Source of the DNA: Schmidtea nova
Taxonomy: Eukaryota
Assembly (NCBI GenBank): GCA_044892505.1
Contig: CM097883.1
Location: 275,094,001-275,158,000 of the forward strand
DNA length: 64,000 bases
Reading direction: 5' to 3'
A program made the translations under genes and the position numbers. Of this stretch, positions 9,573-37,486 are shown in pieces; the stretch's first letter is position 1; each line of letters begins with the position of its first letter. The notes under the pieces are model-generated. The model saw nothing but the letters and a program-made list of their open reading frames with translations, ran no database searches and was not told where the DNA came from.

Positions 9573-9755
9573 GAACTGATTGTCAAATCTTTCAAATTGT
9601 GATTAAATATTAATATTCAGTAGTGTTTTTGTTTTGTTGTTTTGAGTTTTGGTATTGTGTTTTTATAATTCATATTCGTAACCAAATAACCCTATAATCA
9701 GTTTCATTTTTCACATCATTTAATCATAGAGTAAATATCCTAAATAAATTATAGA

Positions 9756-10352: not shown

Positions 10353-10826
10353 ATAAATTGTTGCATTGGCTTAAGAATCTCATCGTTCATTTAAATTGAT
10401 TTAATTAACTTTACCAATGATTAAATAAAGATAGAACAAAAGTATAAATTCAGTTTACAAAATATCGAATAGAGATAATTAAATAATTAAGCGAGCATTC
10501 GTTGAAATACTTCTCGCAGACTGAGCAATGATAAAAATAAATTTTCTGAAAGATTAACGCGGGATACATAAGTAGATGATTAAAGCATAAGTCCTTCTAA
10601 CGGCAGCAATGAACCCGTAAACATAAATGGGGAGTAGTACTAGCGATAGTGCTCACCTGCCCATCATTGTTTAACCACCCTGCGCATCACCAACTTGATT
10701 ATATAGGGAAATAATCAAGGGCGCTGGAGTGTAGAATTGCAATTTTATGCATGATCATGGATGAGGGATCCCTAGTCATTGTTAGAACATTTTTCATCTA
10801 ACCCCTCCATGAACCCAGCATAAATT

Positions 10827-10844
10827 TGGGGGCTCAGCCGGGAT
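10827..10844 (+). other. Primer-binding site, tRNA-Pro type
   Basis: TGGGGGCTCAGCCGGGAT, 6 nt after the LTR; 16/18 identical to the canonical tRNA-Pro PBS TGGGGGCTCGTCCGGGAT. Confidence 0.85.
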
Positions 10845-11148: not shown

Positions 11149-11610
11149 ATGGAGGAAAAACTGAAAGAAATCGAAGAATTCCTCAACACAGAAAGCGAAA
11201 CATTAGAAACGATTGGCAAGAAAATAAACCGATTTAGAGAAATTGAATTTCAAGAACCCACAACACAGACTGAGGAAACAGATGAATTAATAAAGATAAC
11301 AGAAAGAATAAGTAAAATCGACATAGAGACCCGCTACAAATGGTACAGAACACGATTAGAAAATGCAGAATTAAATATTAAGTGCAGGCAAATAGAACAA
11401 CAGTTAACCTCAACATACAATCGATGGAGGGCGCAAGGGGTAGAAGCAGCGAAAAAATACCGACAGTGCTATATATGTGGGGATAGCGAGATACAAATTA
11501 TGTTTTTACCTTGCGGACATTTTCGTTTTTGTAAGATATGTGCCAGCAAGTGCGACCTATGTCCTATGTGCAACCTGATGATAGACGATAAAATTATTGT
11601 ATATTTATAA
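11149..11610 (+). CDS. Coiled coil plus C-terminal IAP-type RING finger protein (153 aa)
   Basis: CYICGDSEIQIMFLPCGHFRFCKICASKCDLCPMC followed by IIVYL*, the spacing and terminus of XIAP/cIAP RINGs; no BIR domain visible. Confidence 0.85.
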   Translation: MEEKLKEIEEFLNTESETLETIGKKINRFREIEFQEPTTQTEETDELIKITERISKIDIETRYKWYRTRLENAELNIKCRQIEQQLTSTYNRWRAQGVEAAKKYRQCYICGDSEIQIMFLPCGHFRFCKICASKCDLCPMCNLMIDDKIIVYL

Positions 11611-12085
11611 TAAATAAAATTTGAATGGAATTTTATTGGTTTATTAATGATGAAATCATGGGTACAATTGTCATATATAAATAATTTTTGAGCTACTGCA
11701 AAGTAGTCCGATAGGAATCCATTGGGAGGTACCGATTGATCAACTTATTCAGGGTGTATAGAAAGGGGCCCATCGCAAATGTTGGAAAGTTTTTGTGATG
11801 TGATTGATCACCACATCCTGCATTAATGGACCAACGCGATCTTTTTGTATATTTTGGTTGGGGAGAGAGATAGGGAAATCTTGATGGAGTAAAGCGCGCA
11901 TAAGAAAAATAAATAAAAAGTTGAAGCAGACTGATCAGGAATAGTTATGATAGAATAAAGAGATAAATGACAAATTTTGAAAGAATAAAAGGTGCATAGT
12001 CAGCTCGCATAGAAGTAGTTATAACTCAGCTGAGAAATTTTAATCGCTAGCGAAGTAGGGAAGTGTGATTAACCGGTTAAGTAAA

Positions 12086-12467
12086 GTTAGGAGATTTGTC
12101 CCTTGAAACAAAGGGTTAGGAGATTTGTCCCTTGAAACAAAGGGTTAGGAGATTTGTCCCTTGAAACAAAGGGTTAGGAGATTTGTCCCTTGAAACAAAG
12201 GGTTAGGAGATTTGTCCCTTGAAACAAAGGGTTATGAGATTTGTCCCTTGAAACAAAGGGTTAGGAGATTTGTCCCTTGAAACAAAGGGTTAGGAGATTT
12301 GTCCCTTGAAACAAAGGGTTATGAGATTTGTCCCTTGAAACAAAGGGTTAGGAGATTTGTCCCTTGAAACAAAGGGTTATGAGATTTGTCCCTTGAAACA
12401 AAGGGTTATGAGATTTGTCCCTTGAAACAAAGGGTTATTAGCGGTTTGTCCCTTGAAAAAAAGGGTT
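12086..12467 (+). repeat. Tandem array, 29-bp unit, about 13 copies
   Basis: Unit GTTAGGAGATTTGTCCCTTGAAACAAAGG with a GTTATGAG variant; no spacers. Confidence 0.95.
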
Positions 12468-12509
12468 GAGGCCAATGAGCCTTATTGAATGACCTAGCTA
12501 GGCGTTATG

Positions 12510-12795
12510 GAGAGATTAAACTGAGGCCAATAGAGCCATTTGAGAGATTAAATTGAGGCCAATAGAGCCATTTGAGAGATTAAATTGAGGCCAATAGAGC
12601 CATTTGAGAGATTAAATTGAGGCCAATAGAGCCATTTGAGAGATTAAATTGAGGCCAATAGAGCCATTTGAGAGATTAAAATTGAGGCCAATAGAGCCAT
12701 TTGAGAGATTAAATTGAGGCCAATAGAGCCAGGTGAGATAGTAAAATGAGGCCAATAGAGCCATGTGAGATATAAAATTGAGGCCAGAAGAGCCA
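12510..12795 (+). repeat. Tandem array, 32-bp unit, about 9 copies, each with a CCAAT box except the last
   Basis: Unit TGAGGCCAATAGAGCCATTTGAGAGATTAAAT; CCAAT at 12527, 12559, 12591, 12623, 12655, 12688, 12720, 12752. Confidence 0.95.
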
Positions 12796-13408
12796 TAGTG
12801 AATTATAGAGATATCCGGATAAATAGTAACAGGGGGAATATAGACCCATAGTATAATCGTCGACGAGATTTAGAGTAGTGCGCACCAGTAGTTAAGAGAA
12901 TGCGAGTAAAGCTGATTATGCAACCTTAAGTAAAGCATGCAAGGAGAATAGTAAAAATTTGGGCTGACCGGAGCAACCGGCAGAATGAGTAGAACGATTG
13001 TTAGCAGGGAATAATGAATAGAAATGATAAAATAATGATAAACGAGTCAGGAAGACTCAGGGAATTAGAGCGCTCGAGCGACCAATAAATTGGGAAACTG
13101 TGGGAAAAGTAATCGATTTGATAAAACATAGATAATTATTACGACGTAAATAGATAATTGTGACCAGTCTATAGATAATTTAAATAGACTAAAAATAAAG
13201 GGGAATCTGGGAATTGGGAAATAATGAAAACCCAGTAATAAGTAATCCCGAAAGAAAGGGAATAAAAGCGCGACGATAACAATAATGTATCGTTGAGGAC
13301 CTTTGTATTTTAGATATACAAATCAATCAAATCAATCAATCAAGCAAGAAGAATCAGAAAAACGATAAGAGATAGAACAGGAAAATTGAGTATACAAAAG
13401 TAATCCCC

Positions 13409-16400
13409 TTGAGAAAAGGAGCAAAGAGTGTCGAAGTAAAGCCAACGGAAAAGAAAGTCGATAGCAACAGTAATAAAAAAGACAAAACTAGTACTACAAC
13501 AAAATCAACAAAAAAGCAGAAAGCCGGCAAAGATAACCCACAAGGGAGTAAATCGAGGAAAATAATAAGAGATAAATCGATTACCGAGAACGATAAATTG
13601 TCAATAATAAGCAACAGCTCAAGTAACAAAGAAAACCAAGCCGAACCCAAGGAGAACCAAGCAAGTGAAACAGAGAGCGACGAAACTAACAACGATAATA
13701 TCGAAGAAGTAGAAAACGAGGTAGAACCAGAGATAGAAATCAACGCGAGTGATAACGAAAGTATAATATCAGATAACGAAGGAATAAGAGAAACAGAAAG
13801 CGATTCAAGCTCGAGTGGAACAGAAGACGAACATAACAACGAATTAGAAACAAGAGGAAACGAAAGTAAAATAACTCAAGACAGCGGAATTGAAATGAGC
13901 GAACCAAGAGAAGAAATAAAGGATAAATTTTCGGGAGAACCGTTTAACGGAGATGCGAGTAAATTAGAAATTTTTCTCAAGGAATTTGGCATATTCGTGG
14001 AAGTATGCAAATGGAAAGCTGAGACAACAGCAAGTAGAATACAGTTATATTTGAAAGATAGCGCATTGGACCTATATTTGGAAGCAAAAAACGGTACCAA
14101 TCCACCTGCAGACTGGCCAGCGATAAAGGACTTTTTCCAACAAACATTTGGAATAAATAGAGTGCTGAGCGAAGCATTCATAGAATTTTCAATGAGAAAA
14201 CAAAAGATGAATGAATCTAACGCGGTATACGCGAGCGAATTGAAAAAATTAGCAAAATCGGTATTCAAGGATGGGAGTCCAATAAACGAGGAATTAATGG
14301 CAGCTATCTTCATAGGAGGATTAAGAAGACCTGACATAAGAGCGCAAGTAGGATGCCAAGGATGCAAAACCCTAGACCAAGCATTAGAAACAGCTAACAG
14401 ATTCGAACTGCATATGATAGGAAGTGAGGGCAGAATTTATTTAGCCATGGATACAGCGCAAACCGAACCAGAGGTAAATCTCAACAATCACATTCCAAAT
14501 TCGCAACAATTAAACCGACCACCCCCTCAACGAAGGAATGAAGGAAATAAAGTGCAGAACTTTGAAAACCAAAACAATTACAACCCTCAAAGACAAACAA
14601 AACAATGTAAAACATGCGGGAAGTTGGGACACTGGCAGCAAGAATGCTATCAAAATTTGAATTGCGGAAAATGTGGAGTTAAAGGACACTCGGAAAGCAG
14701 ATGTTCTACGATAATCTGTTTTAATTGCGGACGACCTGGTCACTATTCAAGGAATTGCGGACAAAAAGGTAATCAACGAGGAAATTGGCAGAGTAATGGG
14801 AACCGACCAAATTACGGAAATCAAGCAAATACCGTAAACCGACCAGATTATGGGAACCAACAAGTCAATAATAACAATAATCAGAACAAAACCACCCCCA
14901 AAGAAATACATTTAATGCAAGAAGTCCAAAGATTGACGGAACTTATAAACAATACGACGAGAGGAAATCCGCAAACCAATCAACAGCAAATTAGCATGAT
15001 GAGAAAAATAGAAAGCGAAAACGAACGATTGAATCAAGAAAGTCAAGCACGACACGCTCAGGAATGGGCAAGAATACAAAGAGAGGATGAACAAAAACAG
15101 CAAGAAAGAGAGCGACAACCTCTAAGAATTAACATGCTAAGAGCAACAAACCAAACAGACACTCGCGAGAAAGAAACCACACTGGAAATGAATTCGATAG
15201 ACCCAAATCCAGCCGACAACGAAAGTCGAAAAGAGACAGTACAAAAAGACGAAGAAGTAGAAAAAGAAATAAAAAAGGAAGGGGAAACTGAGATAAACCA
15301 GGAAGAGAGAAGAAAAATTTGGAAAAAAGGAATGATGGTAATCATGCCCAACGACCATATGTTTCGATTCCAATATAACGCAAAAGAAAAGGTGGAAATA
15401 CTATTCAATAAAGTAAACCAGATGATTCCAGGAGTGACAAAACTGCCCAGAGAAGCGTTCTTACAAATAGGAGATGCACCATCAGTAAAATTGAAATTAA
15501 CGGATATATGGGAAAACATGGGAGTAGTAGAAACAAAAAGAAATGTGATGAGAATTAAAGAAATAGAACCAGAAGAAATTCCACCACCAATACGTCACGA
15601 AACCCGAATCCGGCGAATATTTGAAGGAAAAATGATAAGAAGGCGTTTAAAAGAGATAGACGAGTTGGGAAAGAAAATGGAAAAAGTCGAAGTAATAGAG
15701 GACAAGAGTGAACCAACACCAGAAATTGACAAAAACGAACCAGAACCAACGGAGAATATACAAGGAGAAACGAACCAAATAGCACATATTAATATGCTAA
15801 GAAATACCACCAGAGAGTTTTCCGATGAAGAAGAAGATAGTGATATCAGTAGCCTAGCAGGAGACATATTAAACGAATCCGAAGATGAAAATAAAGAGAG
15901 AGAAGTAATAAAGACCTCAGAACCTACACAGATAAAAGTAGATGAAATCCAGAAATTACTAGATAACTCACTAGAAGTAATATATAACGAAGAGTTCATG
16001 GACAAGAAACAATATCGGAAATTCATGAAAGCATTATTACAAATGAACTACAAAGAATGGTTACAAGACCGGGAAGTAGACATGTTGAATCGATACGTAG
16101 GGAAATTAATAGAGGAACCACTCCTCAATTACACCATCTCAATAATAATAAATACATCTACACCAAGAATCTGGATCAAAACTCCATTTACAGACGATAT
16201 CTACAGATGGGTAGAGGATAGACTAGGGAGCTCATATAAAAACAAATTCATCTATTCGCAGAATAGACTCGTAAAGAAAAGAACTCACTTAGTAGAAACA
16301 GGTATATGGCCAGGAGAAATAACCCTGTTATCAATATGTGATGAAAAAGAAGAAGAGAACCTACAAGAAGTTGCAAGGGAAGCAAACGCGTGCTTCGAAA

Positions 16401-18247
16401 GGAGAATAAAACCACGGTTAGAATACGAGAAAGAACGAGTTTTGCGAAAGAATCTAAATTCCCTGATAGAACAAATCATACCACAAGTCAAAAAACATAG
16501 AAAAGAGTTAATGAGAAACGAATACGAGAAATTGAAACGATGTATTGAGTGCATACGTGACACAAGTCACACGAGATGGTCACAGATCTCACACGACAAA
16601 TTAATCGCAAAAATGGGAAAAACAATGTTTAGACAAGGGAAAATAACAGATCTAAAAATTTCGGTAGAATTACCTAATGAGGACACCAAAGAAATTGAGG
16701 TGGTAGCGGACTGCACCATTAAGGAATTAATAAATGTCATCAACGAGACACTAGTGCAAAGAGAACCAGAAGACGAATGGGAAGACGACATAATCATACA
16801 ATACAACGAACATGTATTATGGGATCACGATGAGAGACGATTATATAAAATCGGTATATGGGATAATCACCAAACAATCCACGTTAGCAGAATGGACAAT
16901 ACACCCAGAGAAACTGCTAAAGATGAGAAAAGAGAACGGGAACGACGGAAAGAAGTTGTGCGTAAATTACAACAAATAGTAGAAATTTATCGAAATTGGC
17001 GAATTTGGCCAGAGTGGGAAAATGTATTAGAAGAACTCAATCTCAACAGACGAATACGAACACCCGTAGAAAAACAATGGAACGAGAAAGGAAAATGTTG
17101 GGAACCAAAAGAAGGGGAATATGAAGAAGAATATAAAAGAGGAATTGAAGATGACTGTGAACCAGAGATAGGAAGAGTTTGCATGGTAACAAGGAAAGCT
17201 ACGCCAATAGACCTAGATGGACCAGAAACCGCGGCTATGTGGTTGGAAAGGGAAAAGCAAAAAACGGAAGAATTCGTCGAAATATTAAAAACTAATGCGC
17301 ACGGTAAGAGAAAAGTAATAAAGGGTCTCGCAGATTTTTTCGTGGTAAATGGGGAGGATATAACATGCTTACGTAAAGTAGCAAAAGCAATCGCGGAATA
17401 TAAAAGAGTTAACGAGTGGTGTCCGGAACAACTAGACCACGTAATTAGGAAATGGAGAAATCAAGAATTCTCGCAAGAAATTCCACAGAAAGTACATTTA
17501 AGAATAATATACCCAAACAAGGATAAGGAAGAGTTGTGGGTAGGAATAGCAGAAAAAATTCGAGATATTAAAAAGAAATTGAGATACGAACCACCATTCC
17601 ATTTACAACATCAAGGACGATCATTAGATAACAGTTTAGAGATTGGAATAACGCCAGCACAATTAGACCTCATGAATACCTTGACAGTAGAAGCAATAGC
17701 GGGTCAACCATTGAAACGTAAAGAAGAAAACCATAAACCACACGGAAGTATAAGTACGCCGAGCCCGATGAAATCAGCACTAACACCAGGGACAAGTTCG
17801 AGACGATCTGAGACAACACCCAGAGGAAATAGAGAAAGGACTCCACCACAACCATATGACGTGGACGAAATATTTACAGACAGCGACGATATGATAGAAG
17901 AATTAACCGAATTAACAAGGGAAAAGGACGATAACATTTTCGAAAGAATACAAGAACTACCTACAACAATACAAGTAACCAACACCGGAGAAACAGAAGT
18001 CGAAGAAGAGATAATAATAGAAGAGGTAAACGATTTGACGGAAGATGAAACGAGAGGAGCAAATGTCGAAAATGTACAATTAACACAAGAAATGGAAAGA
18101 TGGTTAGAAGAAAGAGCTAACGAACCAAGAGATGTCACCGAAGAAACAGGACGAGCAACAAGGTTTGTGGAAACAGGTACAGGAATGGATAAACGACCTA
18201 GAGGTAGACCTAAGACAGACCCAGCAAACTGTAGTTGTAAGAAATAA
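13409..18247 (+). CDS. gag: Extended Gag: capsid, three CCHC zinc knuckles and a long C-terminal extension with ubiquitin-like modules
   Basis: Capsid-like PFNGD...FLKEF, YLKDSALDLY, FIGGL; CKTCGKLGHWQQEC, CGKCGVKGHSESRC, CFNCGRPGHYSRNC; frame open from 13376 but first ATG at 13895, so the true start is uncertain. Confidence 0.92.
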   Translation: MRKGAKSVEVKPTEKKVDSNSNKKDKTSTTTKSTKKQKAGKDNPQGSKSRKIIRDKSITENDKLSIISNSSSNKENQAEPKENQASETESDETNNDNIEEVENEVEPEIEINASDNESIISDNEGIRETESDSSSSGTEDEHNNELETRGNESKITQDSGIEMSEPREEIKDKFSGEPFNGDASKLEIFLKEFGIFVEVCKWKAETTASRIQLYLKDSALDLYLEAKNGTNPPADWPAIKDFFQQTFGINRVLSEAFIEFSMRKQKMNESNAVYASELKKLAKSVFKDGSPINEELMAAIFIGGLRRPDIRAQVGCQGCKTLDQALETANRFELHMIGSEGRIYLAMDTAQTEPEVNLNNHIPNSQQLNRPPPQRRNEGNKVQNFENQNNYNPQRQTKQCKTCGKLGHWQQECYQNLNCGKCGVKGHSESRCSTIICFNCGRPGHYSRNCGQKGNQRGNWQSNGNRPNYGNQANTVNRPDYGNQQVNNNNNQNKTTPKEIHLMQEVQRLTELINNTTRGNPQTNQQQISMMRKIESENERLNQESQARHAQEWARIQREDEQKQQERERQPLRINMLRATNQTDTREKETTLEMNSIDPNPADNESRKETVQKDEEVEKEIKKEGETEINQEERRKIWKKGMMVIMPNDHMFRFQYNAKEKVEILFNKVNQMIPGVTKLPREAFLQIGDAPSVKLKLTDIWENMGVVETKRNVMRIKEIEPEEIPPPIRHETRIRRIFEGKMIRRRLKEIDELGKKMEKVEVIEDKSEPTPEIDKNEPEPTENIQGETNQIAHINMLRNTTREFSDEEEDSDISSLAGDILNESEDENKEREVIKTSEPTQIKVDEIQKLLDNSLEVIYNEEFMDKKQYRKFMKALLQMNYKEWLQDREVDMLNRYVGKLIEEPLLNYTISIIINTSTPRIWIKTPFTDDIYRWVEDRLGSSYKNKFIYSQNRLVKKRTHLVETGIWPGEITLLSICDEKEEENLQEVAREANACFERRIKPRLEYEKERVLRKNLNSLIEQIIPQVKKHRKELMRNEYEKLKRCIECIRDTSHTRWSQISHDKLIAKMGKTMFRQGKITDLKISVELPNEDTKEIEVVADCTIKELINVINETLVQREPEDEWEDDIIIQYNEHVLWDHDERRLYKIGIWDNHQTIHVSRMDNTPRETAKDEKRERERRKEVVRKLQQIVEIYRNWRIWPEWENVLEELNLNRRIRTPVEKQWNEKGKCWEPKEGEYEEEYKRGIEDDCEPEIGRVCMVTRKATPIDLDGPETAAMWLEREKQKTEEFVEILKTNAHGKRKVIKGLADFFVVNGEDITCLRKVAKAIAEYKRVNEWCPEQLDHVIRKWRNQEFSQEIPQKVHLRIIYPNKDKEELWVGIAEKIRDIKKKLRYEPPFHLQHQGRSLDNSLEIGITPAQLDLMNTLTVEAIAGQPLKRKEENHKPHGSISTPSPMKSALTPGTSSRRSETTPRGNRERTPPQPYDVDEIFTDSDDMIEELTELTREKDDNIFERIQELPTTIQVTNTGETEVEEEIIIEEVNDLTEDETRGANVENVQLTQEMERWLEERANEPRDVTEETGRATRFVETGTGMDKRPRGRPKTDPANCSCKK

Positions 18248-24200: not shown

Positions 24201-27200
24201 ATGTCGATACATGCAGCAACAAAACTAAGCCCATTTCAACTTATGTATGGAAGAGAATGCAACATGCCCATAGATTTAGAGTATCAGCCACCATTATCGC
24301 AATATATGGAAGATGACGACTACGTAACCAAATTCAAAGAAAGAATGCAGGAGATATGGAAAACGGCAGAACTCAACATTAAATTCTATCAGGAAAGTTA
24401 TAAGGATTTACACGACCAGAAGAAAAATGTTAAAGCAAACGACCTAAAACCAGGAGATTGGGTGATAATAGAAACTCCCGAAATAATACCAGGAACTGTT
24501 AAGAAACTCCAAAGACCTGGAAGAGGACCTTATGAAATTATATACAAAAAGGACAACAATGTCAAAGTTAAGCTAATAAATAGACCGTTAATACGACCCA
24601 TATATGTAAACACCTGCAGATGTAAGAAAGTGCCTAAAACGATAACTACAACACCAGAAAATCGAATAATAACCAGATCACAAACAGCCAGGATAAATAT
24701 GCTCAGAGCTAATGCAACTGAAGACGACAAAGCAGAAATAAGGCAAAAAGAAATCAGAAATAAAGAGATCATATTGAAGGCGAGAGAAATAATGGGAAGA
24801 TGGCATGTTAAAGACGAAGTAGGCATATCAAGGGACATTAGACATATAATTAGCCGTTACGCACAAGGATTGCCAACCGAACCAATTATTTCGGATTTAT
24901 TGGAAAAAATCCCGGAAATACTCTTATTGAAAGATGTAGGAGGACAACCGGCCTTACATAATGCGATTCAGTGTAAAAACATTGAAAGAGCAAAAGAATT
25001 CTTGAAAATCGCAAAAGAAACAAACCAAAACCTAGACGTTGGGAATCGTGAACAAGAAACTCCATTAATGACAGCCGCAATCCACCAAGCAGATAAAGAA
25101 ATGATAGATCTATTGATAAAAGCTCATTTCAGTTGGACAGAACGAGATAGAGAGGACAAAACAGTGCTAAATCACGTAATATGGAGTTCTCACCAACCAA
25201 TGCTGGAATACATAATAGCTAACTCCACTTGGGAGATAGACGAACTAGTTAAAGGAGACATTATCAAAGAGGCAATCAAAATTGGTAAATGCAACACGAT
25301 CCGTAAGTTAATCAAATGGAAACGACCAGAAGATGATACATGGGTCTTAGACATAAACGAAGTATACAGCGAAGGACAAAACGCACTGTTAAGATACCTT
25401 TTGAAATTTACTTGTGATCAGAAGACATTACTAACCTTATTAGACAGAGGAAACATAAACATCACAAAGAATGAAGAAGAATACAAATTCGATAAAGAGA
25501 AGGAAGCCTTATTCAATAAGATTAGGAAATGGTGTGCGAAACCACTTGATAAACTAATAACATACAAAGACATAAACAATTTTAACGAGAAATACCAGAC
25601 GATAGTAAGCGAATATGAGGAATTAGTAAAAATCTTAAACCATCCCGAAAAATGCAAACAGGTTTTAGAGAAAAAAGAAAGAGAAAGTAACAAGAAACTC
25701 ACACCACTCTTCAAAGCAGAAGCACCATACCAAGCTAGACTAGATGCGATACAAGAAAAAGCAAAAGAATTGTTACCGGAATTCGAGAATAGTAAACATG
25801 CACTGGAAATACTCGGCGCATTAGTTGAAAAAGTACACGCATACGCAAAAGGAACATACAATGGTAACGACATAGTAATAATAAAAAAGGAGATGCCAGT
25901 AACATTCCTATTACCAAAAGACGGAATAATGCCCATACATAGAGCTCTACGAAATGGCAAAGATAGGAAAGTAATGGAAATTGCAAGAGTAATGCTAAAT
26001 TGCGGAAGCAATATGAATATGATAGACGAGAAAGGAGATACACTTATGATATTTGCAGCAAGGGCCAAAACGAAAACAAAGGTATTAGAAGAACTATACA
26101 AAGCAGGTGCAGGACTTACAGGAAAGACAGATAAAGATAATTCGATATTGGATGTAGCATTATTAACACACAATTGGGAAATGGTCAATTTCATTAAAAC
26201 CGTCCCAAATCAGGAAGAAATAGATCACCTAACTGATACGGTCAAGAAACCCAGTGTACTAGCAATGATGAACAACGTCGAACTAACAGAATCAATACTT
26301 ACGTGGATAAATCCTAATACTAACGAACCAGCATTCAGGATTAATAAGTTTACAGAACATAACCAAAACTGGTGTATAAGAAGTGCCTTAATAACGTATA
26401 AATGGCCAGAGATATTGAAGATGTTTATGGAAAGAAAAGATCTAAAAATCACAACCAGCCCGAAAGAGGAAAAATACACAGGCAAATGGAAAGAATTGAT
26501 GAAGACATACATCAACAATTGGATCAAGGCCAAAAAGGAAATCTTGGAACATAAATCCACTAACAAAGTAATACCGGAGCAGGTAGAAACACAAGAATTT
26601 GAGGCAAGTAATCTAACGACATTAGCATATGCAAAATTGATAGAAGAAATCAATGTCGAGGACGACATTTTCGACGAGCCAGGGGGAGATGACAACACAG
26701 ATAGTGACGACGGTAACAACTCAGAAAATTCAAGCGATCACGAACCACCCGATAAAGAGGAAAACGAGAGAAAAGACAAGAAACGAGACAAGGAAGGAAA
26801 GAAAGGTGAGGACGAAAAACAAAGAGATGAAGAGAGAGAACAAGGAACAAACGACCAAGGAGATAAAAATGACACCCAAAGAACAGGTTATAAATCAACC
26901 ATAAAACCATTCTTCAAACCAGAATTACTATTACTAACAATGATTATAACGTTAATTAATCCAAGTCAGGGAATGACATGTGAAGAAAGGGCAATAATAC
27001 AAATAAAAAACGCAAAAGGAATCGAACGAGTATGTTGGTCGAAAAAGGACAAAATCACGGAACAAAATAGCCCGATGGATTGCAGAATCTCAGAACACGA
27101 GCAAGAAATCATAGAGATCAACGACCTAGATCTAGATACCTGGTACAAAATATGCACCGTTAGGAAACAAAAGCATCCAAGATCACACAACACAATCGCA

Positions 27201-30200
27201 TGTGCAAAATACCAAACACCTAAAGCAGCCATGACAATACAACAGTCACCCAAAGGAGATTACATCATCGGAAAATGTGGAAGAACAGAGACACAGGGAA
27301 CAGAAAACAAAAAACCCCAGGCAATAGATAAGCAAACAACACCAACCCTACGAATTACAATAGAGAGGCCCGAAACAAGAATTGCCACAAACGAAACCGA
27401 AAGAGTGTCTTACCAAATGGAAGTATTATGCTTAGCACTCATACTAATAATGATAAAACGATTAGAGGAAGGAATAGAAATTGAAACTATGACAATAACA
27501 GAAGTAGAAGATACACAGAATACTAACATAAAATGTTGGGCGAGGAATAACGAGGAAATCGGCGTAAATGAAATAAGGAAAAGTCGAAAACCAACAACGA
27601 ATAAAGTAATTAAAGTATCCGAAGTAAAAGCAGATAAGACGTACAAACTATGCCTACTAGAAAAAGAGACAAACAAGAAAGGTACCACAAAATGCAAAAC
27701 ATTTCAACCCGGAGAAGTAATAAAGTTCAGAAGGAGAACGAGGAAGAGAAATAAACAAATCAAGCGGAAAATGAACATAACATTAGAAATAAAAGAGATA
27801 GAACCAAATGTGAAAGGAGTATGCTGGAGGAAGTACGAAAAAGAAACAAATAAAAGAACGACACCACAATGTCAAACAAGCACAGGAGCAACGACGATTC
27901 AAATAAAAGGTTTAGAAAGTAAACAAACTTACGAAATATGTCTGATAAAGAAAAATGATCAGATAACGATAAACGATCTAGAATGCGGAATATACACCAC
28001 TTCATCCGGAACAAGAACTAAAACGATAACACGAAAAAATAAAAGAAGACAACGAAACAAAGGGAAACCGAAGTACACCACTACCTTTAAAAACAATAAA
28101 CAACCGATAAGCCAAGAAGTTACGACAAAACCCGAGAAAAAGACATCAGCAACTCTGACATTATGGAAAATAGAGAATAAAACATTGGAGATATGTTGGA
28201 TAATAGTTCAGAAACATATAAGAAGACAATCAAGAGAGTGCAGAAAAACAAATAAAGAAATCAAGATCGAAAAACTACAATTTAATAGCGAGTATGAAGT
28301 ATGTACAATAGAAAAGACGGACGCACTAGGAAACCAACAAGAAAGATGCGAAACCTACTATACACCAGCGAACGCAACATCAAAAGGAATAACAAGGAAA
28401 CTCGAATTCAGGGAACTAAGCCAAACGAATGAACAAATGGACGCAGAAAAAACAATAACCGACCCTCAAGCAAAATGGACACCCGAAGAAGTTATCAAAG
28501 AAGTCAAAAGAAAGCAAGAGGAACGAGAACAATTAATGAGAAAACTAAAGGGACAATACGGAATAATGTTCAACCAAAGCGAACCTATACAAACAGACGA
28601 GAATAAAGAAATTAAAGAACTAATCGGCTTAGGAATATTAACAGCAACCATACCAGTAATAATCGCGTTATCAGCTATATGGATACGCAAGATAAACCCA
28701 AGAAAATCAACAACCCAATGGCTAAATATAGATAATACAAGCCATGGAGTAGAAATACTAGAAGAAAAAGCACGAGAAGAACCAAATAAGAAAGAAGCGA
28801 AAAGCGGAAAACTAGGAATAAACAACAAAGACAAGGAAATAAAAGAGATTAAAGGCGAAGAGAAAAAATATGAAAGGCGAACCAGAAGCCTACCGCAGAG
28901 TTCAAAATGGTTGGGTCTAACAATAATATTGACATTAATCAATAGGGAAGAAGCAACAAACCTACAAGCAGGGATAAAAATAGTAAATGTCCAGGAGGTC
29001 GAGAAAATATGCTGGAATAGAGAGGATGAACCAATTGGGAAAGATAACCCACTAAAATGCATAATCAGAAAATCCGACCAGGATATAGTACGAATAGAAG
29101 GGATGGATAGAGGAATCATGCATCGAATATGCATAATAGGAAAGGAAAAGAAGTCGGGGCTACCTAAGACAGTCGTATGTCAAAAATACGAAACGCCTGG
29201 ACTCGAATGGTATAGAGTAAAACCAACAAAGAAAGAAATCAAAAACACCATAGATCAACCAGCAACTCAGATAAGAAACACAACGGATAAACCAGGAGAA
29301 GGAGAGAAAAGCACCAATAAAACGAGAGAAAGAATATCACCCCAACAGGAGTGCGTATGCATAGCATTAATACTAGCAATGTCCAAACGTATCGATAAAG
29401 GAATAATAATAGAACAAATGGCCATAACAATAAGGAAAACAAGCAGCAACAAACTATGCTGGGGAACATATAACGAACCAAGGAAGGAATACCAAGTTCA
29501 GACAAGCGACGAATCACGAACAAACAAGGAAATCGAAATACAAGAAATACAAATGAATGAAGAAGGAAGTATATGTATATGGGAGAGAGGAATCCAAGAG
29601 GGAATAGAGCATTGCAAGACATTCCAAAAAGGGGAGATACTGAAATTCGATGAAGAAGAATTAACAAAAACAGAAAGAACTCTGACATTAACAGGACTCG
29701 ATCAGACAGTTAAAGGAATATGTTGGACAAAGCATAACCCAGAAGGGGAAGAAGACAACCTAACTCACTGTAGAGAAATAAAGAATAAAGAAAAAGTCGA
29801 ATTAAAGAAAATGGAAGTAAATAGGACATACGCGATATGTACCTTCACCAGAAAAGGTTCAGAAAAACCAGAATGCGGATTATATCAGATCTCAGAGAAA
29901 CTACAACAACAGATCGAACCAGGAAACATGGAAAACCGAACAAAAGAAAATAACGTCAAACAACTACTAAACCGCCATTGGTCTACCCAAGAAGTAATGA
30001 ACAAAGTCAAGAGTCAAATACCGAAAGAGAAGAAGCCAGAGGCTCAAACCCGAAATGAGATAAAAGTAAATCAGAATAAAAACAAAGAAACAAACATGGG
30101 GAAAGCAGTAATAGGATTGATCAGTATGGGAATATTAATAACGTATGGAATACTGACGACAAGCATAATAATATATTGGAGATACAGAAAGAGAAACAAA

Positions 30201-30362
30201 GCGACAGCCATACAATGGCCAGATATTAAAATTATGAAGCAAAGAATAGAAATACCAGAAGAGATACAGCAAGAATTCCAAAGAAGAACGAAAGGTAAAG
30301 AATTCTGGAAACAAATAGAAGATGAAGAACGATACGAGGAAAAGACGATAATGATGGTATAG
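18132..30362 (+). CDS. pol: 4076-aa polyprotein: Bcl-2-like / envelope glycoprotein / PR / RT / RNase H / IN / ankyrin repeats / two FN3 membrane proteins
   Basis: DTGA at 21294, YIDD at 22509, TDAS at 22953, integrase HHCC plus D,D,E and GPY; uninterrupted ORF. Confidence 0.96.
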   Translation: MSPKKQDEQQGLWKQVQEWINDLEVDLRQTQQTVVVRNKDEKRQDQWELCLRKLNKIAEMKEKETTPICQGEEWISKTIMEILAIIDPELRKYWRITEISEKAKSLHSAIAPILPEFIKEKTKSNHLDWQGTTMLIKKLTEGAETDNKYVIAIAYTIYNLLTLRRGRPKPTALERHIKNTAKIIAREIEPYVINKGGWETFIKTNQKKTQAKNMKKKFEKILEELGKEQAGTGNAKSSMNLSAIIMMMLIWMISTDSATAFEVFDCDQMKLGEKYSLRGTEQCKDATPVELQKIKKEQWYHVYQEAELIKTMVNECKVQKTRFAFYCGRGHYSAIVMPGTEREPIVLQGEDCEALFKHGEVTTRDKIKIRGKPGMMMQQTYYVAGRITGGEGYCQGETYPIFGVPATNLVVMDTYIVELKSYEAFFEPTTGEMKTLSMCKIDRSMCQTGMSTLVYKPKVNECQLQLLQGAKFDEIQGKTFQEEDDDDKDRAKHLKEALENKRQLKPDHREKRIEMRATPTVLITTNQDVGMRFIKGKATLKCSTTVYETNYPGIYVSKQEVPNAKPKIDTMDIKLHLYVNNKMDFLFHRGQASLQKVYYDLINNDCILNREILKTKLAVAITNPDSAMPLLPLREGHFGRVVGEAMYVYICEKTHASLAATTQLKPGTCTNELEIDYKGKVRYVQPVTRIINPPGFEPNPFNCSNAYGPLYQKPDGKWVMFPGRSEVIAPREFELMQLSKDRQFSDVDVSNNGIYSPKDLEAARQNILFPARREALLSNIVTITGGTDYREGPNYELLLSPAHFKKATENMMKAMWGRFLIFGQMMAGILGVILIIQIVRVIITQMLACFDIYKREKKVNWKMVVGFLPFLAKTMVLHGHSKDIHRIKRLLKILAKMKGTDEEVGRKFKKIMNDEQARQQLKRERKGLWERMKGYKTQNDSSDDDDDDDDYKGGQVYKNQAPQYIEKNPADAWKCYAPPPTMYQEPLQGGKNSTMQMMPMTNVYPMIPEDYKMRRCRSVDPQGDTHTIAVMSSNTGPVLTTTIEINGREIEAMIDTGANISAIDIKWIPQEQRREIERTNVHVIACSKEVVEVAGRWWVKIRHLNTEIDTYVAVITALSVPCIIGTDLMPALFKEIVIDLGTMRLKDRTGQICAIEAKVTSSKQMIIPARKEKICYVKIDPTIQGDMIFEPSKRFEKRKALPMARGLVNINDDGEIPINVVNFDEEDKIIYENERLGKLTPMMDIELPIEGAEKDKEPTWNIDSELLNEDQRKQLEKLLIEYKDIFAASDLDLGTCDVTLHTIPLTDETPIALRPYKLAEAQKAVAEAEVKKMLDAEVIEPSCSPWQFPVVMVKKKDGTQRFCIDYRRLNTVTKRDTYPLPDINEMLLTLQGAAYFTSLDLKSGYWQIKMKEEDKEKTAFTIGRDLYQFRKMPFGLTNAPASFQRCMNFVTHGIKQCMVYIDDLLIYSSTFEQHIQDIRDVFVRLRQWKLKLKPSKCDWAKEKVTFLGHIVSAKGKEPDPRNIDKVKECPVPKTITQIQEFLGLCGYYRKFIKDYAGIAKPIQELVKKDVSFIWGDEQQIAFETLRDKLITAPILVHPDFKKPFLLATDASGYAAGAVLGQYDDEGKERVIGYYSRTFKKHEKNYSVTEREALAIILAIKHFKYLLWGHIICITTDHQPLVWLGQHKETSSRLMRWAMQLQEYSPDIKFKSGRANANADCMSRLTFPELTDPDVQRICVLIAEDLDFSELKKDQQEDKELGQIIEFLTSRNMEVFKDNKELKEHIGKYQHRYIINKGWLLIQDGEKRLMCLPENRRKEIMIQYHDGKLGGHMSEKKTINRMRQKYYWRTMEEDIKEWIKNCLTCATRKDSGKKWKNPLQPMPIPAEPMTTIAMDVIGPLPESLNGNIYILVITDYLTKFPEAFAMQDQKAKTVAKILVEEICCRYGTPKQILTDQGTNFMSELLNEVTNYFRIAKLRTSPYHPQTNGQTERFNGTLIRMLSNYVSRHQTDWDEYIKLCLMAYRMSIHAATKLSPFQLMYGRECNMPIDLEYQPPLSQYMEDDDYVTKFKERMQEIWKTAELNIKFYQESYKDLHDQKKNVKANDLKPGDWVIIETPEIIPGTVKKLQRPGRGPYEIIYKKDNNVKVKLINRPLIRPIYVNTCRCKKVPKTITTTPENRIITRSQTARINMLRANATEDDKAEIRQKEIRNKEIILKAREIMGRWHVKDEVGISRDIRHIISRYAQGLPTEPIISDLLEKIPEILLLKDVGGQPALHNAIQCKNIERAKEFLKIAKETNQNLDVGNREQETPLMTAAIHQADKEMIDLLIKAHFSWTERDREDKTVLNHVIWSSHQPMLEYIIANSTWEIDELVKGDIIKEAIKIGKCNTIRKLIKWKRPEDDTWVLDINEVYSEGQNALLRYLLKFTCDQKTLLTLLDRGNINITKNEEEYKFDKEKEALFNKIRKWCAKPLDKLITYKDINNFNEKYQTIVSEYEELVKILNHPEKCKQVLEKKERESNKKLTPLFKAEAPYQARLDAIQEKAKELLPEFENSKHALEILGALVEKVHAYAKGTYNGNDIVIIKKEMPVTFLLPKDGIMPIHRALRNGKDRKVMEIARVMLNCGSNMNMIDEKGDTLMIFAARAKTKTKVLEELYKAGAGLTGKTDKDNSILDVALLTHNWEMVNFIKTVPNQEEIDHLTDTVKKPSVLAMMNNVELTESILTWINPNTNEPAFRINKFTEHNQNWCIRSALITYKWPEILKMFMERKDLKITTSPKEEKYTGKWKELMKTYINNWIKAKKEILEHKSTNKVIPEQVETQEFEASNLTTLAYAKLIEEINVEDDIFDEPGGDDNTDSDDGNNSENSSDHEPPDKEENERKDKKRDKEGKKGEDEKQRDEEREQGTNDQGDKNDTQRTGYKSTIKPFFKPELLLLTMIITLINPSQGMTCEERAIIQIKNAKGIERVCWSKKDKITEQNSPMDCRISEHEQEIIEINDLDLDTWYKICTVRKQKHPRSHNTIACAKYQTPKAAMTIQQSPKGDYIIGKCGRTETQGTENKKPQAIDKQTTPTLRITIERPETRIATNETERVSYQMEVLCLALILIMIKRLEEGIEIETMTITEVEDTQNTNIKCWARNNEEIGVNEIRKSRKPTTNKVIKVSEVKADKTYKLCLLEKETNKKGTTKCKTFQPGEVIKFRRRTRKRNKQIKRKMNITLEIKEIEPNVKGVCWRKYEKETNKRTTPQCQTSTGATTIQIKGLESKQTYEICLIKKNDQITINDLECGIYTTSSGTRTKTITRKNKRRQRNKGKPKYTTTFKNNKQPISQEVTTKPEKKTSATLTLWKIENKTLEICWIIVQKHIRRQSRECRKTNKEIKIEKLQFNSEYEVCTIEKTDALGNQQERCETYYTPANATSKGITRKLEFRELSQTNEQMDAEKTITDPQAKWTPEEVIKEVKRKQEEREQLMRKLKGQYGIMFNQSEPIQTDENKEIKELIGLGILTATIPVIIALSAIWIRKINPRKSTTQWLNIDNTSHGVEILEEKAREEPNKKEAKSGKLGINNKDKEIKEIKGEEKKYERRTRSLPQSSKWLGLTIILTLINREEATNLQAGIKIVNVQEVEKICWNREDEPIGKDNPLKCIIRKSDQDIVRIEGMDRGIMHRICIIGKEKKSGLPKTVVCQKYETPGLEWYRVKPTKKEIKNTIDQPATQIRNTTDKPGEGEKSTNKTRERISPQQECVCIALILAMSKRIDKGIIIEQMAITIRKTSSNKLCWGTYNEPRKEYQVQTSDESRTNKEIEIQEIQMNEEGSICIWERGIQEGIEHCKTFQKGEILKFDEEELTKTERTLTLTGLDQTVKGICWTKHNPEGEEDNLTHCREIKNKEKVELKKMEVNRTYAICTFTRKGSEKPECGLYQISEKLQQQIEPGNMENRTKENNVKQLLNRHWSTQEVMNKVKSQIPKEKKPEAQTRNEIKVNQNKNKETNMGKAVIGLISMGILITYGILTTSIIIYWRYRKRNKATAIQWPDIKIMKQRIEIPEEIQQEFQRRTKGKEFWKQIEDEERYEEKTIMMV
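18354..18740 (+). other. Bcl-2-like domain within the polyprotein
   Basis: Helical domain ending in BH2-like YVINKGGWETFI, with a hydrophobic alpha5-like NKYVIAIAYTIYNLL in the BH1 position. Confidence 0.65.
18846..20690 (+). other. Chuvirus-type envelope glycoprotein domain (signal peptide, Cys-rich ectodomain, TM)
   Basis: Signal MNLSAIIMMMLIWMISTDSATA; motifs FEVFDC, FYCGRGHYS, LYVNNKM, YYDLINNDCILNREIL, VGEAMYVYIC, NNGIYSPKDL...ILFP in the order recalled for chuvirus G; TM from 20586. Confidence 0.8.
21210..24640 (+). other. Core Pol: aspartic protease, reverse transcriptase, RNase H, integrase
   Basis: IDTGA; RFCIDYRRLN, DLKSGYWQI, MPFGLTNAPASFQR, YIDD; TDAS...YSVTEREALA...TDHQPL; H-H-C-C, AMD, TDQG, QTNGQTER, GPY. 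Confidence 0.98.
24930..26190 (+). other. Two clusters of ankyrin repeats after integrase
   Basis: GQPALHNAI, ETPLMTAA, KTVLNHVI; GIMPIHRAL, GDTLMIFAA, NSILDVAL, spaced about 33 aa apart. Confidence 0.85.
26925..28685 (+). other. Type I membrane protein module 1: signal, four FN3-like repeats, TM
   Basis: LLLLTMIITLINPSQG; four CW...L..x.Y.IC...C..Y/F.T repeats; TM LIGLGILTATIPVIIALSAIW. Confidence 0.7.
28908..30185 (+). other. Type I membrane protein module 2: signal, three FN3-like repeats, TM (paralogue of module 1)
   Basis: WLGLTIILTLINREEA; three similar repeats; TM AVIGLISMGILITYGILTTSIIIYW followed by RYRKR. Confidence 0.7.
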
Positions 30363-30488
30363 GGGCGGATTATGACTGTAAATAATAGTGTAAATAACAA
30401 AGCATTACCGTAATAGTATGGGTATCGATATTATAAAAAATTGTAAAAAGCTAGAAAAACAAAGTAAATGATGTATATAATTTAGAAA

Positions 30489-30845
30489 ATGACCGAACAG
30501 GACGAAACAACTGAAATAACTATGGCTATGAGATGGAAGGCACAATGTGATTTATTAGTACGAACAGTCAACTCATTACAGAACCAATTAGCGGAAAGAC
30601 AAATGTTATTATCAGAAAGTTATAACAATTGTTTCGAACAATTACACAGAATAGAGGAACAACAAAGAGCGATAACTGAACTCACCAGAGAAAATCAAAC
30701 GATAAGCAACACCAATCAAAGACAAGCAATAGAAATAAACCATTTAACACGAGGAGAAAGAGAAGGATCCGAAGAAGGATGGATGAGTTGGGTAATAAAT
30801 AGATTAAACAACGAAGCGGAACCAGATTCAACGAATGAGCCATAG
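30489..30845 (+). CDS. Accessory ORF, 118-aa coiled-coil protein
   Basis: Intact ORF with the element's A-rich codon usage, heptad pattern, TAG-AAA-ATG start context. Confidence 0.7.
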   Translation: MTEQDETTEITMAMRWKAQCDLLVRTVNSLQNQLAERQMLLSESYNNCFEQLHRIEEQQRAITELTRENQTISNTNQRQAIEINHLTRGEREGSEEGWMSWVINRLNNEAEPDSTNEP

Positions 30846-30937
30846 ATAAATAAAGCGGAAAACTGTAAATATGTAAAAATAAAAACAAGAAAAACCAAAA
30901 ATAAATGACAAGTCGAATGTATATATTATTGTAGAAA

Positions 30938-32314
30938 ATGGACAGAGAAGAACGAATAATCGAAATTTTGAGACTAGAAAACAGAAAATGGAGCAAGAGA
31001 CTCACATGCGGAAAATGTAACAATTTATTACGAGAACCCAGACAAACGATATGTGGATGTAGAATATGTACAAAATGTATACAAGAATTAGATGTAACAG
31101 GAATAACAACATGCCCAGCATGTAAAGAAGGAAGAATAGTGTTGAACGAAACCAGAACGGACAAAGCAACCCAGAGAGAAATTATGAGCACCATAACGGA
31201 GTGCGTAAATACACCTTGTACATGGCAAGGACAAATAAGCAATCTAGAGAACCATATGGAAAAATGCGAGGAAAAGAGAGCCGAATGCGAGAAATGCCAA
31301 CAGACAATAACTCTAAAGAAGAGAGAACAACACAAGGAAGAATGTAAAGAAGAAGAAATCGCATGCGAGTATTGTGAAACTCGAGAAACAAGGAGAAAAA
31401 TCGAAGAGGAACACTTGAATATAACAGAAGAGAAAGTATGCAGACAATATGTAAGTAAATGTCCAAACAATTGCGAAATAACCGAAGAAGTAAAGTTACA
31501 TGAACATTGGAAAGTATGTACCGAAAGACCAAGAGAATGTCCATATAACAAGCAGGGATGCAAAGAAAAGCGGACGCGGCAATCAATGAAACAACACCTA
31601 GAAGAAGCAGCACTAACGCATGTGGAAATGACAAACGAAACGACAAAAGAAACGGAACAGACAATCCAGAAATTAGAAAAAGAAGTAGAATCACATAAGA
31701 TAATGATGAGTTTACTACTAGAAACAAGAGAGCAGTTTGAACTAACTCGCGAAAGAATGGAAAAGAAAATAATAGCCATAGAAGAATTAGGAAAAGGAAT
31801 GAAAATACAATATAATCAATTAATACGAGAAATTGACGAAAGAAGGGACTTACCAATCGCACCTTACCTATGGAAAGTAACAGATTTCAGAGACAAACTA
31901 GCAGAAGCCAGAAATATGACGAAAACAGCAGTAATAAGCCCACCATTTTATTTATGGAAAAACGGGGTTAAAATAAGATTGAAAGTATACCCAAATGGAG
32001 ACGGAAGAGGACAAGGAACACACGTGTCAATATTCTTCTCACTATGTAAAGGAGAATACGATGACCTAATAGAATGGCCCTTGAAAATAGGAGTCATTAT
32101 AAGAATCAAAAGTATGGGAAAACCGGTAGAAAAGTTCTTTGAAACAGACAAACATTCGAGTACGAGCGAAAAACCAACGACAGAATGCGGACTAGCAGCA
32201 GGAGAACCAATGTTTATAAGGAAAGAAAACCTATGGGAGCAACTATATGCAGACACGCTATACATAGAGATGGAGAGGCATGAGAAAACAGACAGAAAAG
32301 GATGGTTGGCGTAA
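30938..32314 (+). CDS. Full-length TRAF-family protein (RING, TRAF zinc fingers, coiled coil, MATH/TRAF-C), 458 aa
   Basis: CGKCNNLLREPRQTICGCRICTKC...CPAC; C-x-C zinc fingers; LWKVTDF...SPPFY...YPNGDGRGQGTHVSIFFSLCKGEYDDLIEWP. Confidence 0.95.
   Translation: MDREERIIEILRLENRKWSKRLTCGKCNNLLREPRQTICGCRICTKCIQELDVTGITTCPACKEGRIVLNETRTDKATQREIMSTITECVNTPCTWQGQISNLENHMEKCEEKRAECEKCQQTITLKKREQHKEECKEEEIACEYCETRETRRKIEEEHLNITEEKVCRQYVSKCPNNCEITEEVKLHEHWKVCTERPRECPYNKQGCKEKRTRQSMKQHLEEAALTHVEMTNETTKETEQTIQKLEKEVESHKIMMSLLLETREQFELTRERMEKKIIAIEELGKGMKIQYNQLIREIDERRDLPIAPYLWKVTDFRDKLAEARNMTKTAVISPPFYLWKNGVKIRLKVYPNGDGRGQGTHVSIFFSLCKGEYDDLIEWPLKIGVIIRIKSMGKPVEKFFETDKHSSTSEKPTTECGLAAGEPMFIRKENLWEQLYADTLYIEMERHEKTDRKGWLA

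Positions 32315-37454: not shown

Positions 37455-37486
<32 letters not shown>

Follow-up and report, generated by a model that had tools for sequence, protein, structure and literature searches.

The window, that is, the entire 64,000-nucleotide stretch of Schmidtea nova DNA analysed here, holds a young, recently inserted Burro-type element, an env-bearing Ty3/gypsy retrotransposon of 29.75 kb, in which five cargo domain types (TRAF, RING, Bcl-2-like, ankyrin and ubiquitin-like, UBL) are all under purifying selection (omega 0.04-0.35). On balance, we lean towards the reading that this selected cargo was captured piece by piece and would work side by side, without forming a single complex, to dampen death and stress-immune signalling where the element is expressed. 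The five parts named in the preliminary description are real, the UBLs being weakly supported, and all domains of interest lie inside the one LTR element, which is laid out as follows.

7705..10820 (+): 5' LTR, TG...CA ends, 100% identical to the 3' LTR
9093-9572 and 9756-10352 (+): two ORFs inside the 5' LTR, no Pfam match and no known family; omega 0.29 and 0.36
10827..10844 (+): primer-binding site sequence, directly inside the 5' LTR
11149..11610 (+): 153-aa accessory ORF with helical N-terminus and C-terminal IAP-type RING, no BIR; omega 0.28
12086..12796 (+): two arrays of tandem repeats within the 5' leader, with units of 29 nt and 32 nt
13895..18247 (+): polyprotein, Gag region (capsid-like, with CCHC knuckles), then three UBL candidates
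15302-15589, 16607-16894 and 17468-17710 (+): three candidate beta-grasp UBLs; omega 0.35, 0.08 and 0.04
18132..30362 (+): remainder of the polyprotein, which in the window copy is ORF2
18324..18752 (+): Bcl-2-like domain, ORF2 aa ~65-207, BH2 GGW kept, BH1 degenerate; omega 0.11
18846..20711 (+): Env fusion glycoprotein (PF24664, E 1e-70; TM segment at aa 827-843 by hydropathy), preceded by a hydrophobic signal/anchor segment at aa 239-255
21234..24281 (+): protease, dUTPase-like position, RT, RNase H and integrase; omega 0.03-0.14
24894..26501 (+): ankyrin region of two blocks, a single unit duplicated internally (Pfam E 1e-14); omega 0.14 and 0.23
26940..30362 (+): membrane-spanning tail with three hydrophobic segments and repeated FN3-like modules (a lead only)
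30489..30845 (+): accessory ORF of 118 aa that matches no family above the threshold; omega 0.19
30938..32314 (+): full-length TRAF with RING (Cys in place of the usual His), zinc fingers, coiled coil and MATH; omega 0.13-0.21
32429..33490 (+): 353-aa coiled-coil accessory ORF; omega 0.17
33566..34135 (+): 189-aa accessory ORF with a TM segment; omega 0.31
34340..37455 (+): 3' LTR, 3.1 kb, 100% identical to the 5' LTR

The 5' LTR is inserted in an AAT microsatellite, and the exact junction between LTR and primer-binding site has 510 matches genome-wide. The primer-binding site, which we take to be of the tRNA-Pro type, is common to this element and a non-autonomous sister family. LTR pairs were 99.3-100% identical in 24 of the 28 sampled copies with both LTRs recovered, and the family is therefore active or recently active. 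As described in 2018, Burro is ~30 kb long and encodes one huge polyprotein, gag-UBL-BCL2-env-PR-RT-RH-IN-ANK, in which env lies in frame and separates gag from pol (PMC6431247); it also has TRAF/MATH, tandem repeats and accessory ORFs, and a role in meddling with apoptosis and ubiquitin was proposed (PMC6431247 section 7). The window element is alike in its size of ~30 kb, long LTRs, PR-RT-RH-IN order (the dUTPase-like label is taken from that description), env in frame between gag and pol within a single polyprotein, MATH/TRAF, BCL2-like, UBL and ANK cargo, tandem repeats and accessory ORFs (PMC6431247). However, its full-length TRAF is encoded by an ORF of its own within a 3' cassette, whereas Burro has MATH in the polyprotein or in an upstream ORF; the window element also lacks a BIR, and has a duplicated ANK block and a long membrane tail on its polyprotein. 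With TRAF as a separate 3' ORF and no BIR gene, it falls outside the Burro1 subfamily, which combines a polyprotein-internal MATH with a BIR gene. The comparison here is with the published description, and the window family may be one of Burro-2/3/4. That Burro carries apoptosis and ubiquitin genes is already known, the cargo list and the idea of meddling with apoptosis having been published for the sister element (PMC6431247 section 7); the additions here are a selection measure for each module, a BIR-RING gene on a replication-dead satellite, and a suggested role of the Bcl-2 fold as an Env leader.

Gag and ORF2 form one ORF (4,958-5,492 aa) in 6 of the 28 sampled copies. The break between them near 18.1-18.2 kb is private to the window copy, the frame relation being different in 12 of the 12 A/B copies that span the site, and a programmed frameshift from gag to ORF2 was rejected. 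Since the part from Bcl-2 to ANK is out of frame with gag in the window copy, this particular insertion may fail to make that product.

Selection was measured on up to 28 copies from three subfamilies (A, B and C) plus the window; copies covering <80% of a module were dropped for that module (0-6 rows), and omega within subfamilies was computed against the element's own mutation spectrum. This expectation replaced singleton-versus-shared and fixed-versus-singleton tests, which are weak here because the singletons are themselves depleted of amino-acid changes. Within subfamilies, omega was 0.11 for the Bcl-2-like domain, 0.28 for the RING, 0.13-0.21 for the TRAF parts, 0.14-0.23 for ANK and 0.04-0.35 for the UBLs (all p ≤ 1e-8), and stops were strongly depleted in the cargo modules. 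Between subfamilies it was 0.06-0.37 where dS was unsaturated; tail3 of subfamilies B and C matched a paralogous repeat, which voids its between-subfamily values and limits tail3 to A, and comparisons of the LTR ORFs between A and B are unreliable. ORF lengths are kept across subfamilies whose proteins share only 45-78% identity. Random transduction of host genes, now decaying neutrally, would fit the frameshifts in many copies, 22 of the 28 having no continuous polyprotein. Still, the conserved lengths stand against neutral decay, and omega far below 1 for every module together with the depletion of stops refutes it, leaving this explanation with practically no chance of being correct; the earlier claim that each gene is selected, not randomly transduced, is borne out for all five. 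Literature searches returned no per-module selection measure for Burro cargo. However, selection does not single out the death pathway, because three accessory ORFs and two LTR ORFs belonging to no death-pathway family are similarly conserved (omega 0.17-0.36). That accessory ORFs of no known role are as conserved as the death-related ones also counts against our preferred reading.

The RING of the 5' accessory ORF is of the C3HC4 kind, with XIAP/cIAP as its best solved relatives (E 5e-10; profile E 3e-13) and cIAP2/XIAP as top matches; the RINGs of MYLIP and CGRRF1 also match, more weakly. It is C-terminal and followed by the aromatic tail residue of IAPs (Y/F in 12 of 12 rows), and its zinc ligands are invariant across copies except for a one-residue deletion in subfamily C. 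By homology, the window RING is IAP-type. An IAP protein has at least one BIR, and the window family was found to have none: there was no Pfam BIR in the window, and tblastn matches and six-frame zinc signatures were both zero in the window and 40 sampled stretches. TRAF2 recruits cIAP via BIR1, and the RING ORF, being devoid of a BIR, cannot bind caspases or TRAF through one. When homologs of the RING ORF were sought, 0 of 20 candidates were found. In position and full-length similarity it matches the separate 5' RING ORF of a sister family, where that ORF coexists with a BIR-RING gene. The Burro1 gene B-IAP (Lee, Poulet, Allikka Parambil, van Wolfswinkel, Dev Cell 2026) is a BIR-RING gene reported to protect stem cells from caspase-mediated apoptosis (as cited in PMC13465017). 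B-IAP and the window ORF are alike as element-borne IAP-type RINGs with a proposed survival function, but B-IAP has BIR and RING whereas the window ORF has the RING only. The gene with published anti-apoptotic activity is absent from the window family and carried instead by the replication-dead satellite. The role in keeping producer cells alive that was envisaged for the window cargo is plausible and is reported for the Burro1 gene (as cited in PMC13465017), but that gene is not part of the window family, which counts against our preferred reading.

In the TRAF ORF, a RING is combined with TRAF zinc fingers, a coiled coil and a MATH domain (Pfam MATH E 1e-20; human TRAF3 E 1e-23), and its best solved matches are TRAF3/5/2. 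In an unrooted MATH tree with few references, all element MATHs formed one long-branch clade (support 97/96), and the window TRAF grouped with other Burro TRAFs, apart from a TRAF2/3 reference. Prediction of a complex between the TRAF trimer and the RING ORF product, made without alignments, scored 0.02 and spoke neither for nor against such a complex. The ankyrin blocks follow integrase in frame; among the best 60 of 382 matches, the top ones were ankyrins and DARPins, and no IkB or NF-kB chain occurred among these 60. Judged by these matches the window ankyrins look generic, and the idea that they mimic IkB finds no support. A Rel-homology search of the genome gave 0 candidates, the control likewise being without a match, so that the zero carries no information.

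The preliminary description had read the five parts as mimics of one TRAF2/3-cIAP-IkB-Bcl-2 pathway, cooperating as a module. The solved matches to TRAF3/5/2 and XIAP/cIAP favour this, as do the TRAF that adjoins a true BIR-RING IAP in the non-autonomous family and the RHD-ANK proteins that planarians possess according to PMC6211748. We nevertheless regard it as very improbable: the window family has no BIR, its ANK does not look IkB-like (best 60 of 382 matches), its TRAF lies outside the TRAF2-like references of an unrooted tree with few references, modules occur in differing combinations in four families, unrelated ORFs are equally conserved, and direct NF-kB homologs are described as hard to identify in planarians (PMC13563047).

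Single-sequence searches with the window Bcl-2 region found no match in Pfam, PDB or Atlas. However, the domain is syntenic and alignable with the Pfam-positive Bcl-2 domain of a sister family, and its family profile reaches Bcl-xL at E 1e-5. Among the 37 Foldseek matches listed for the low-confidence model (pLDDT 56), all were of the Bcl-2 family (best E 0.046), and the top VIA match of this model (pLDDT 56) was BAX at Z 6.6, tied with an unrelated chain. A helical Bcl-2 fold with BH2, whose GGW is invariant, is present with weak scores. The motif NWGR marks BH1 of the BH3-binding groove in the pro-survival Bcl-2 family. It was absent from 25 of 25 aligned copies, where the aligned position reads D-[N/S]-K-Y, and BH3 binding is doubtful because BH1 is degenerate. 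Of the two assignments made earlier, the modelled Bcl-2 one probably stands at the level of fold, on weak scores and without NWGR, and the IAP one at the level of RING type, without a BIR. Viral Bcl-2-fold proteins (herpesvirus BHRF1/M11, poxvirus A49/CNP058, ASFV A179L) share the fold at very low identity, with VIA Z of 4.8-5.3 for the window model; in contrast to them, the window domain is part of a retroelement polyprotein, with the Env signal peptide as its presumed anchor. Certain Bcl-2-fold proteins of poxviruses block immune signalling instead of cell death.

The Bcl-2-like domain always lies directly upstream of the Env signal peptide, it was lost along with Env in the non-autonomous family, and in 4 of 9 scanned public relatives of its profile the fusion glycoprotein stands directly behind it. 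The fold is suggested to be an old Env-leader module. The position before Env, the joint loss and the missing NWGR would also suit a cargo that serves mainly replication, with RING, TRAF and UBL in ubiquitin-dependent trafficking or budding, the Bcl-2 fold as a membrane-shaping Env leader, and ANK, in frame after integrase, guiding integration. The UBL candidates point the same way, being fused to Gag and without a C-terminal di-Gly, the mark of a type I modifier, at 0 of 3 ends; they are weakly supported, with a best profile E of 4.5e-4, Rad60-SLD matched by 2 of 13 members, and a poor model (pLDDT 38) whose weak Foldseek UBL matches include none at E ≤ 0.001. We consider this explanation unlikely, as ANK, TRAF, RING and protease stay constrained after the loss of gag, env and integrase, and four public gag-env-pol relatives are without such cargo domains, so that the cargo is not needed for a gag-env-pol architecture.

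The constraint without replication genes is seen in a high-copy sister family of ~25 kb, for which the genome has 1,068 exact matches to the BIR motif and 1,737 to the ANK-start motif. This family has lost gag, env, RT and integrase, together with Bcl-2, but its TRAF, RING ORF, protease, ankyrin and a complete BIR-RING IAP remain under selection (omega on shared variants 0.11-0.12 for TRAF, 0.12 for ANK, 0.29 for RING and 0.39 for the BIR region), while its UBL was under no significant constraint (p 0.3). Cargo constrained on such a family points to selection via the producer cell. A replication-dead, cargo-keeping family was not found in literature searches, and the text and supplements of Grohme 2018 and Lee 2026 may already describe it, the window family or the RING-only ORF. 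Large retrotransposon derivatives (LARDs) are non-autonomous LTR elements whose cargo is rarely >10 kb (PMC6431247). LARDs and the sister family are alike as non-autonomous LTR elements moved in trans, but the latter is ~25 kb long and has many protein-coding ORFs under purifying selection. A further family of ~14 kb is organised as gag-UBL-Bcl-2-Env-pol with no match to TRAF, RING or ANK, and a Burro1-like copy carries MATH within its polyprotein along with the 5' RING ORF, and no BIR. With modules in different combinations across the four families, the cargo parts look separately captured and reshuffled.

Selection may also act at the level of the host, with stem cells dependent on survival proteins made by the element. 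Such mutualism is reported for Burro1 (as described in PMC13465017), and the IAP gene is present in at least 1,068 copies in the genome; we hold it to be rather improbable, the constraint being on variants common to dispersed, young copies, which fits selection during retrotransposition. The two are not exclusive, and are inseparable from sequence data alone. Conceivably, though we would not expect it, the Burro elements of this genome form a helper-satellite consortium that divides the survival cargo: the autonomous families would contribute the Bcl-2-fold Env leader and the BIR-less RING, and the satellite the only true IAP found in these elements and TRAF in an operon-like cassette. The satellite would pay for its transport by sustaining the stem cells that express both, while RING-RING dimers would let the RING-only protein adjust how stable the IAP is. 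If the non-autonomous cargo is truly selected via cell survival, transposon families would compete or cooperate at the stem-cell level.

The favoured reading of separately captured parts acting in parallel has its observed basis in the architecture, the purifying selection on every module and the reshuffling among sister families. The Bcl-2-like domain would form the cytosolic terminus of the Gag-UBL segment, with the Env signal peptide tethering it to the ER, in effect a tail-anchored Bcl-2 fold whose groove is non-canonical. In TRAF-TAK1/TBK1 signalling, the full-length TRAF may act as a competitor of the expanded TRAF family of the host, and the BIR-less RING could be a dimeric E3 or pair with IAP RINGs of the host or the satellite. 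ANK and UBL would be interaction modules of a generic kind that may serve replication instead of death control. The FN3-like tail modules reached an Atlas FN3 score of 0.87, below the mark of 0.9, and a Pfam Fn3 E of 0.0025. Four runs (one study, kind unrecorded) showed the depth typical of repeats, and neither joints nor leader ends in them were informative. The accessory ORFs are predicted to be translated from spliced or trans-spliced RNAs, a YAG standing immediately upstream of the ATG in 25 of 29 ORFs.

The TRAF, RING, Bcl-2-like, ankyrin (ANK) and UBL domains listed in the preliminary description were confirmed to reside in one element, and all of them lie inside a single LTR element at window positions 7705-37455. 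Its two 3.1-kb LTRs share 100% identity, and the insertion site is an AAT microsatellite. The features of the element and its surroundings are:

Inside the element: RING ORF, 153 aa
Inside the element: two tandem arrays
Inside the element: gag ORF
Inside the element: 4,076-aa ORF coding for an Env fusion protein, protease, RT, RNase H, integrase and ankyrins
Inside the element: 3' cassette of four ORFs, the second a full-length TRAF
42334-44862, minus strand: hAT-like DUF4371 ORF and an adjoining ORF
48107-49333, plus strand: intronless galactosyltransferase ORF
50200-51064, plus strand: integrase fragments of another gypsy element

This architecture is that of the giant Burro gypsy elements described from planarians in PMC6431247, a review that lists MATH/TRAF, BIR, ankyrin, BCL2-like, Ubi2/SUMO-like and env. 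Together with an AT-rich genome of 1.25 Gb, it suggests a dugesiid planarian as host. Meddling with apoptosis and ubiquitination is already proposed there, and the idea of cargo directed at apoptosis is largely anticipated in print.

The exact LTR-PBS junction motif gave 510 matches genome-wide. The first 40 among the 100 listed, each taken with 30 kb of surrounding sequence, yielded 9 copies of subfamily A (that of the window), 5 of B, 14 of C and 12 other elements. Subfamily B is about 78% similar to A in nucleotides and C about 75%/65%, and LTR pairs were 99.3-100% identical in the 24/28 copies with both LTRs recovered. A continuous gag-to-tail ORF of 4,958-5,492 aa was found in 6/28 copies. 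The gag/ORF2 split of the window is either private to this copy or an error of the assembly, since the frame relation across 17950-18330 differs from that of the window in 12/12 A/B copies spanning the region. Env of A (window 18909-20711) is 98% identical to that of C and 80% to that of B, whereas A groups with B in most other modules; env thus appears to have been exchanged through a recombination swap.

Between subfamilies, where part of the dS values is saturated, dN/dS was low in all five modules (Bcl-2-like domain, 0.08-0.11; RING, 0.18-0.22; TRAF parts, 0.06-0.37; ANK, 0.12-0.32; UBLs, 0.09-0.34), compared with 0.01-0.02 for RT. Within subfamilies, omega (the amino-acid-changing rate relative to that expected from the element's own fourfold-site spectrum, in counts that take sites as independent and ignore recombination such as that in Env) was 0.11, 0.28, 0.13-0.21, 0.14-0.23 and 0.04-0.35 for the same five modules, respectively. 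With both measures far below 1 in all five domain types, and omega at 0.04-0.35 across the cargo, the objection of neutral decay fails and the cargo is selected. Constraint extends to the accessory ORFs (118 aa, 0.19; 353 aa, 0.17; 189 aa, 0.31), to the polyprotein tail at 0.37-0.40 and to both LTR ORFs at 0.29 and 0.36, and consequently selection on the cargo shows function without telling which function.

The Bcl-2 assignment found no support when the single window sequence was searched against Pfam, PDB or Atlas. Conversely, the region is syntenic with the Pfam-positive Bcl-2 domain of a sister family, and a family profile, which takes in three sister-family rows, retrieved Bcl-xL at E 1e-5; PF00452 was matched at E ≤ 1 by 5/13 family members. 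For a low-confidence model, every listed Foldseek row belonged to the Bcl-2 family (E 0.046-0.35), and the same model scored a Z of 6.6 against BAX, level with an unrelated chain. In combination, synteny, profile and model rescue the assignment, albeit with an altered BH1: BH2 is retained, but the NWGR motif of BH1 is substituted in 25/25 copies. A hydrophobic segment separates the domain from Env in the window element and the sister family alike. Among 1.84 billion public representatives the profile matched 10 proteins; of the nine scanned, four carried a fusion glycoprotein directly behind and four a weak Bcl-2 match.

The TRAF identity of the 3'-cassette ORF was solid by domain and structure-database comparisons. 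In the tree, the MATH domains from these elements all fell into a single clade (97/96), separate from the 22 distinct host rows and 6 references included, consistent with a single capture that was later relocated. The host genome also encodes a large TRAF family, clustered on C2 at ~405-455 Mb, and in some of its members a single open frame covers both RING and MATH. The RING ORF is IAP-type by best matches, as proposed, but BIR was absent from the window and the 40 sampled stretches, also by zinc signature. The ankyrin blocks are two copies of one unit, with no IkB among the best 60 of 382 ankyrin matches. Three UBL candidates drew weak support from profile and fold comparisons, with no di-Gly after any of the three. 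The original interpretation holds in part: the cargo is under selection and likely has a role in survival or immunity, but through modules that probably act in parallel and not in one TRAF-cIAP-IkB pathway.

The sister families show a mosaic of modules. The three elements of a ~14-kb family (a) have the order gag-UBL-Bcl-2-Env-PR-RT-RH-IN with no TRAF, RING or ANK matches; their second ORF (717-847 aa) is of no known kind. Cargo domains were absent from four other public gag-env-pol relatives. One autonomous Burro1-like copy (b) has MATH within a 4,606-aa polyprotein and a 5' RING ORF, and no BIR. The BIR matches of the genome trace to the ~25-kb family (c), which shares the PBS and whose LTRs have 93% identity with those of (b). 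Its 1,036-aa UBL-protease-ANK ORF maps to four separated blocks of the (b) polyprotein, and it also has the 5' RING ORF, a complete TRAF and a BIR-RING IAP of 389 aa. Two whole elements and 20/20 further stretches (10 kb each, picked from 150 listed matches) gave no gag, env, Bcl-2, RT, RH or IN matches, and UBL-PR-ANK were consecutive in 16/20 stretches. Motif matches genome-wide numbered 1,068 for BIR and 1,737 for the ANK start, and ANK sites picked for having no listed BIR partner had the protease directly upstream in 10/10 cases. Shared-variant omega was 0.11-0.12 for TRAF, 0.12 for ANK, 0.31 for protease, 0.29 for RING and 0.39 across the BIR region, with no significant constraint on the UBL. 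Family (c) is a high-copy non-autonomous Burro family in which purifying selection acts on protease, ANK, TRAF, the BIR-RING IAP and additional ORFs; literature searches, with two key Burro papers beyond their reach, turned up no account of a Burro that is non-autonomous and carries cargo alone. Gag-only elements of ~11-14 kb (10/40 PBS-anchored stretches, 10 of the 12 other elements) share the LTR-PBS junction motif, have a ~900-aa ORF 53% identical to the window gag, and appear to be a second non-autonomous type.

Gaps between accessory ORFs are about 75-125 nt. An acceptor-like YAG lies ≤12 nt from the ATG in 25/29 ORFs of four families (background 0.13), and the 611 spacer bases contain seven copies of the Pumilio-site-like TGTAHATA, against a shuffle mean of 0.17; these enrichments suggest that the accessory messages may be spliced or trans-spliced, with 3' signals. 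YAG precedes accessory ATGs including 9093, 9756 and 11149, TGTAHATA falls in the 30363-34339 spacers, and enrichment was seen in 4/4 families checked. The polyprotein would leave Gag-UBL-Bcl-2 cytosolic, with the Env signal peptide as anchor. BIR-dependent routes are closed to the RING-only protein, which would serve as an E3 or as a partner of other RINGs. The element TRAF would be a decoy among the TRAFs of the host, which PMC7958881 and PMC13563047 link to planarian immunity. Constraint on the cargo of a non-self-replicating element is most simply explained by better survival of the cell that produces it, and such a benefit was reported for the Burro1 BIR-RING gene (Lee et al. 2026, as cited in PMC13465017).

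The gag frame is open for ~170 acidic, Ser-rich codons 5' of its first ATG (window 13376-13894), and a start via a non-ATG codon or splicing is possible. Candidate FN3-like modules recur along the polyprotein tail (26940-30362), which also has several hydrophobic segments and is predicted to give extra membrane proteins. Two ORFs at 55618-57008 (211 and 193 aa), without a Pfam match, look by eye like the two ORFs carried in the LTR, and this stretch is probably a solo LTR or a fragment of a related family.
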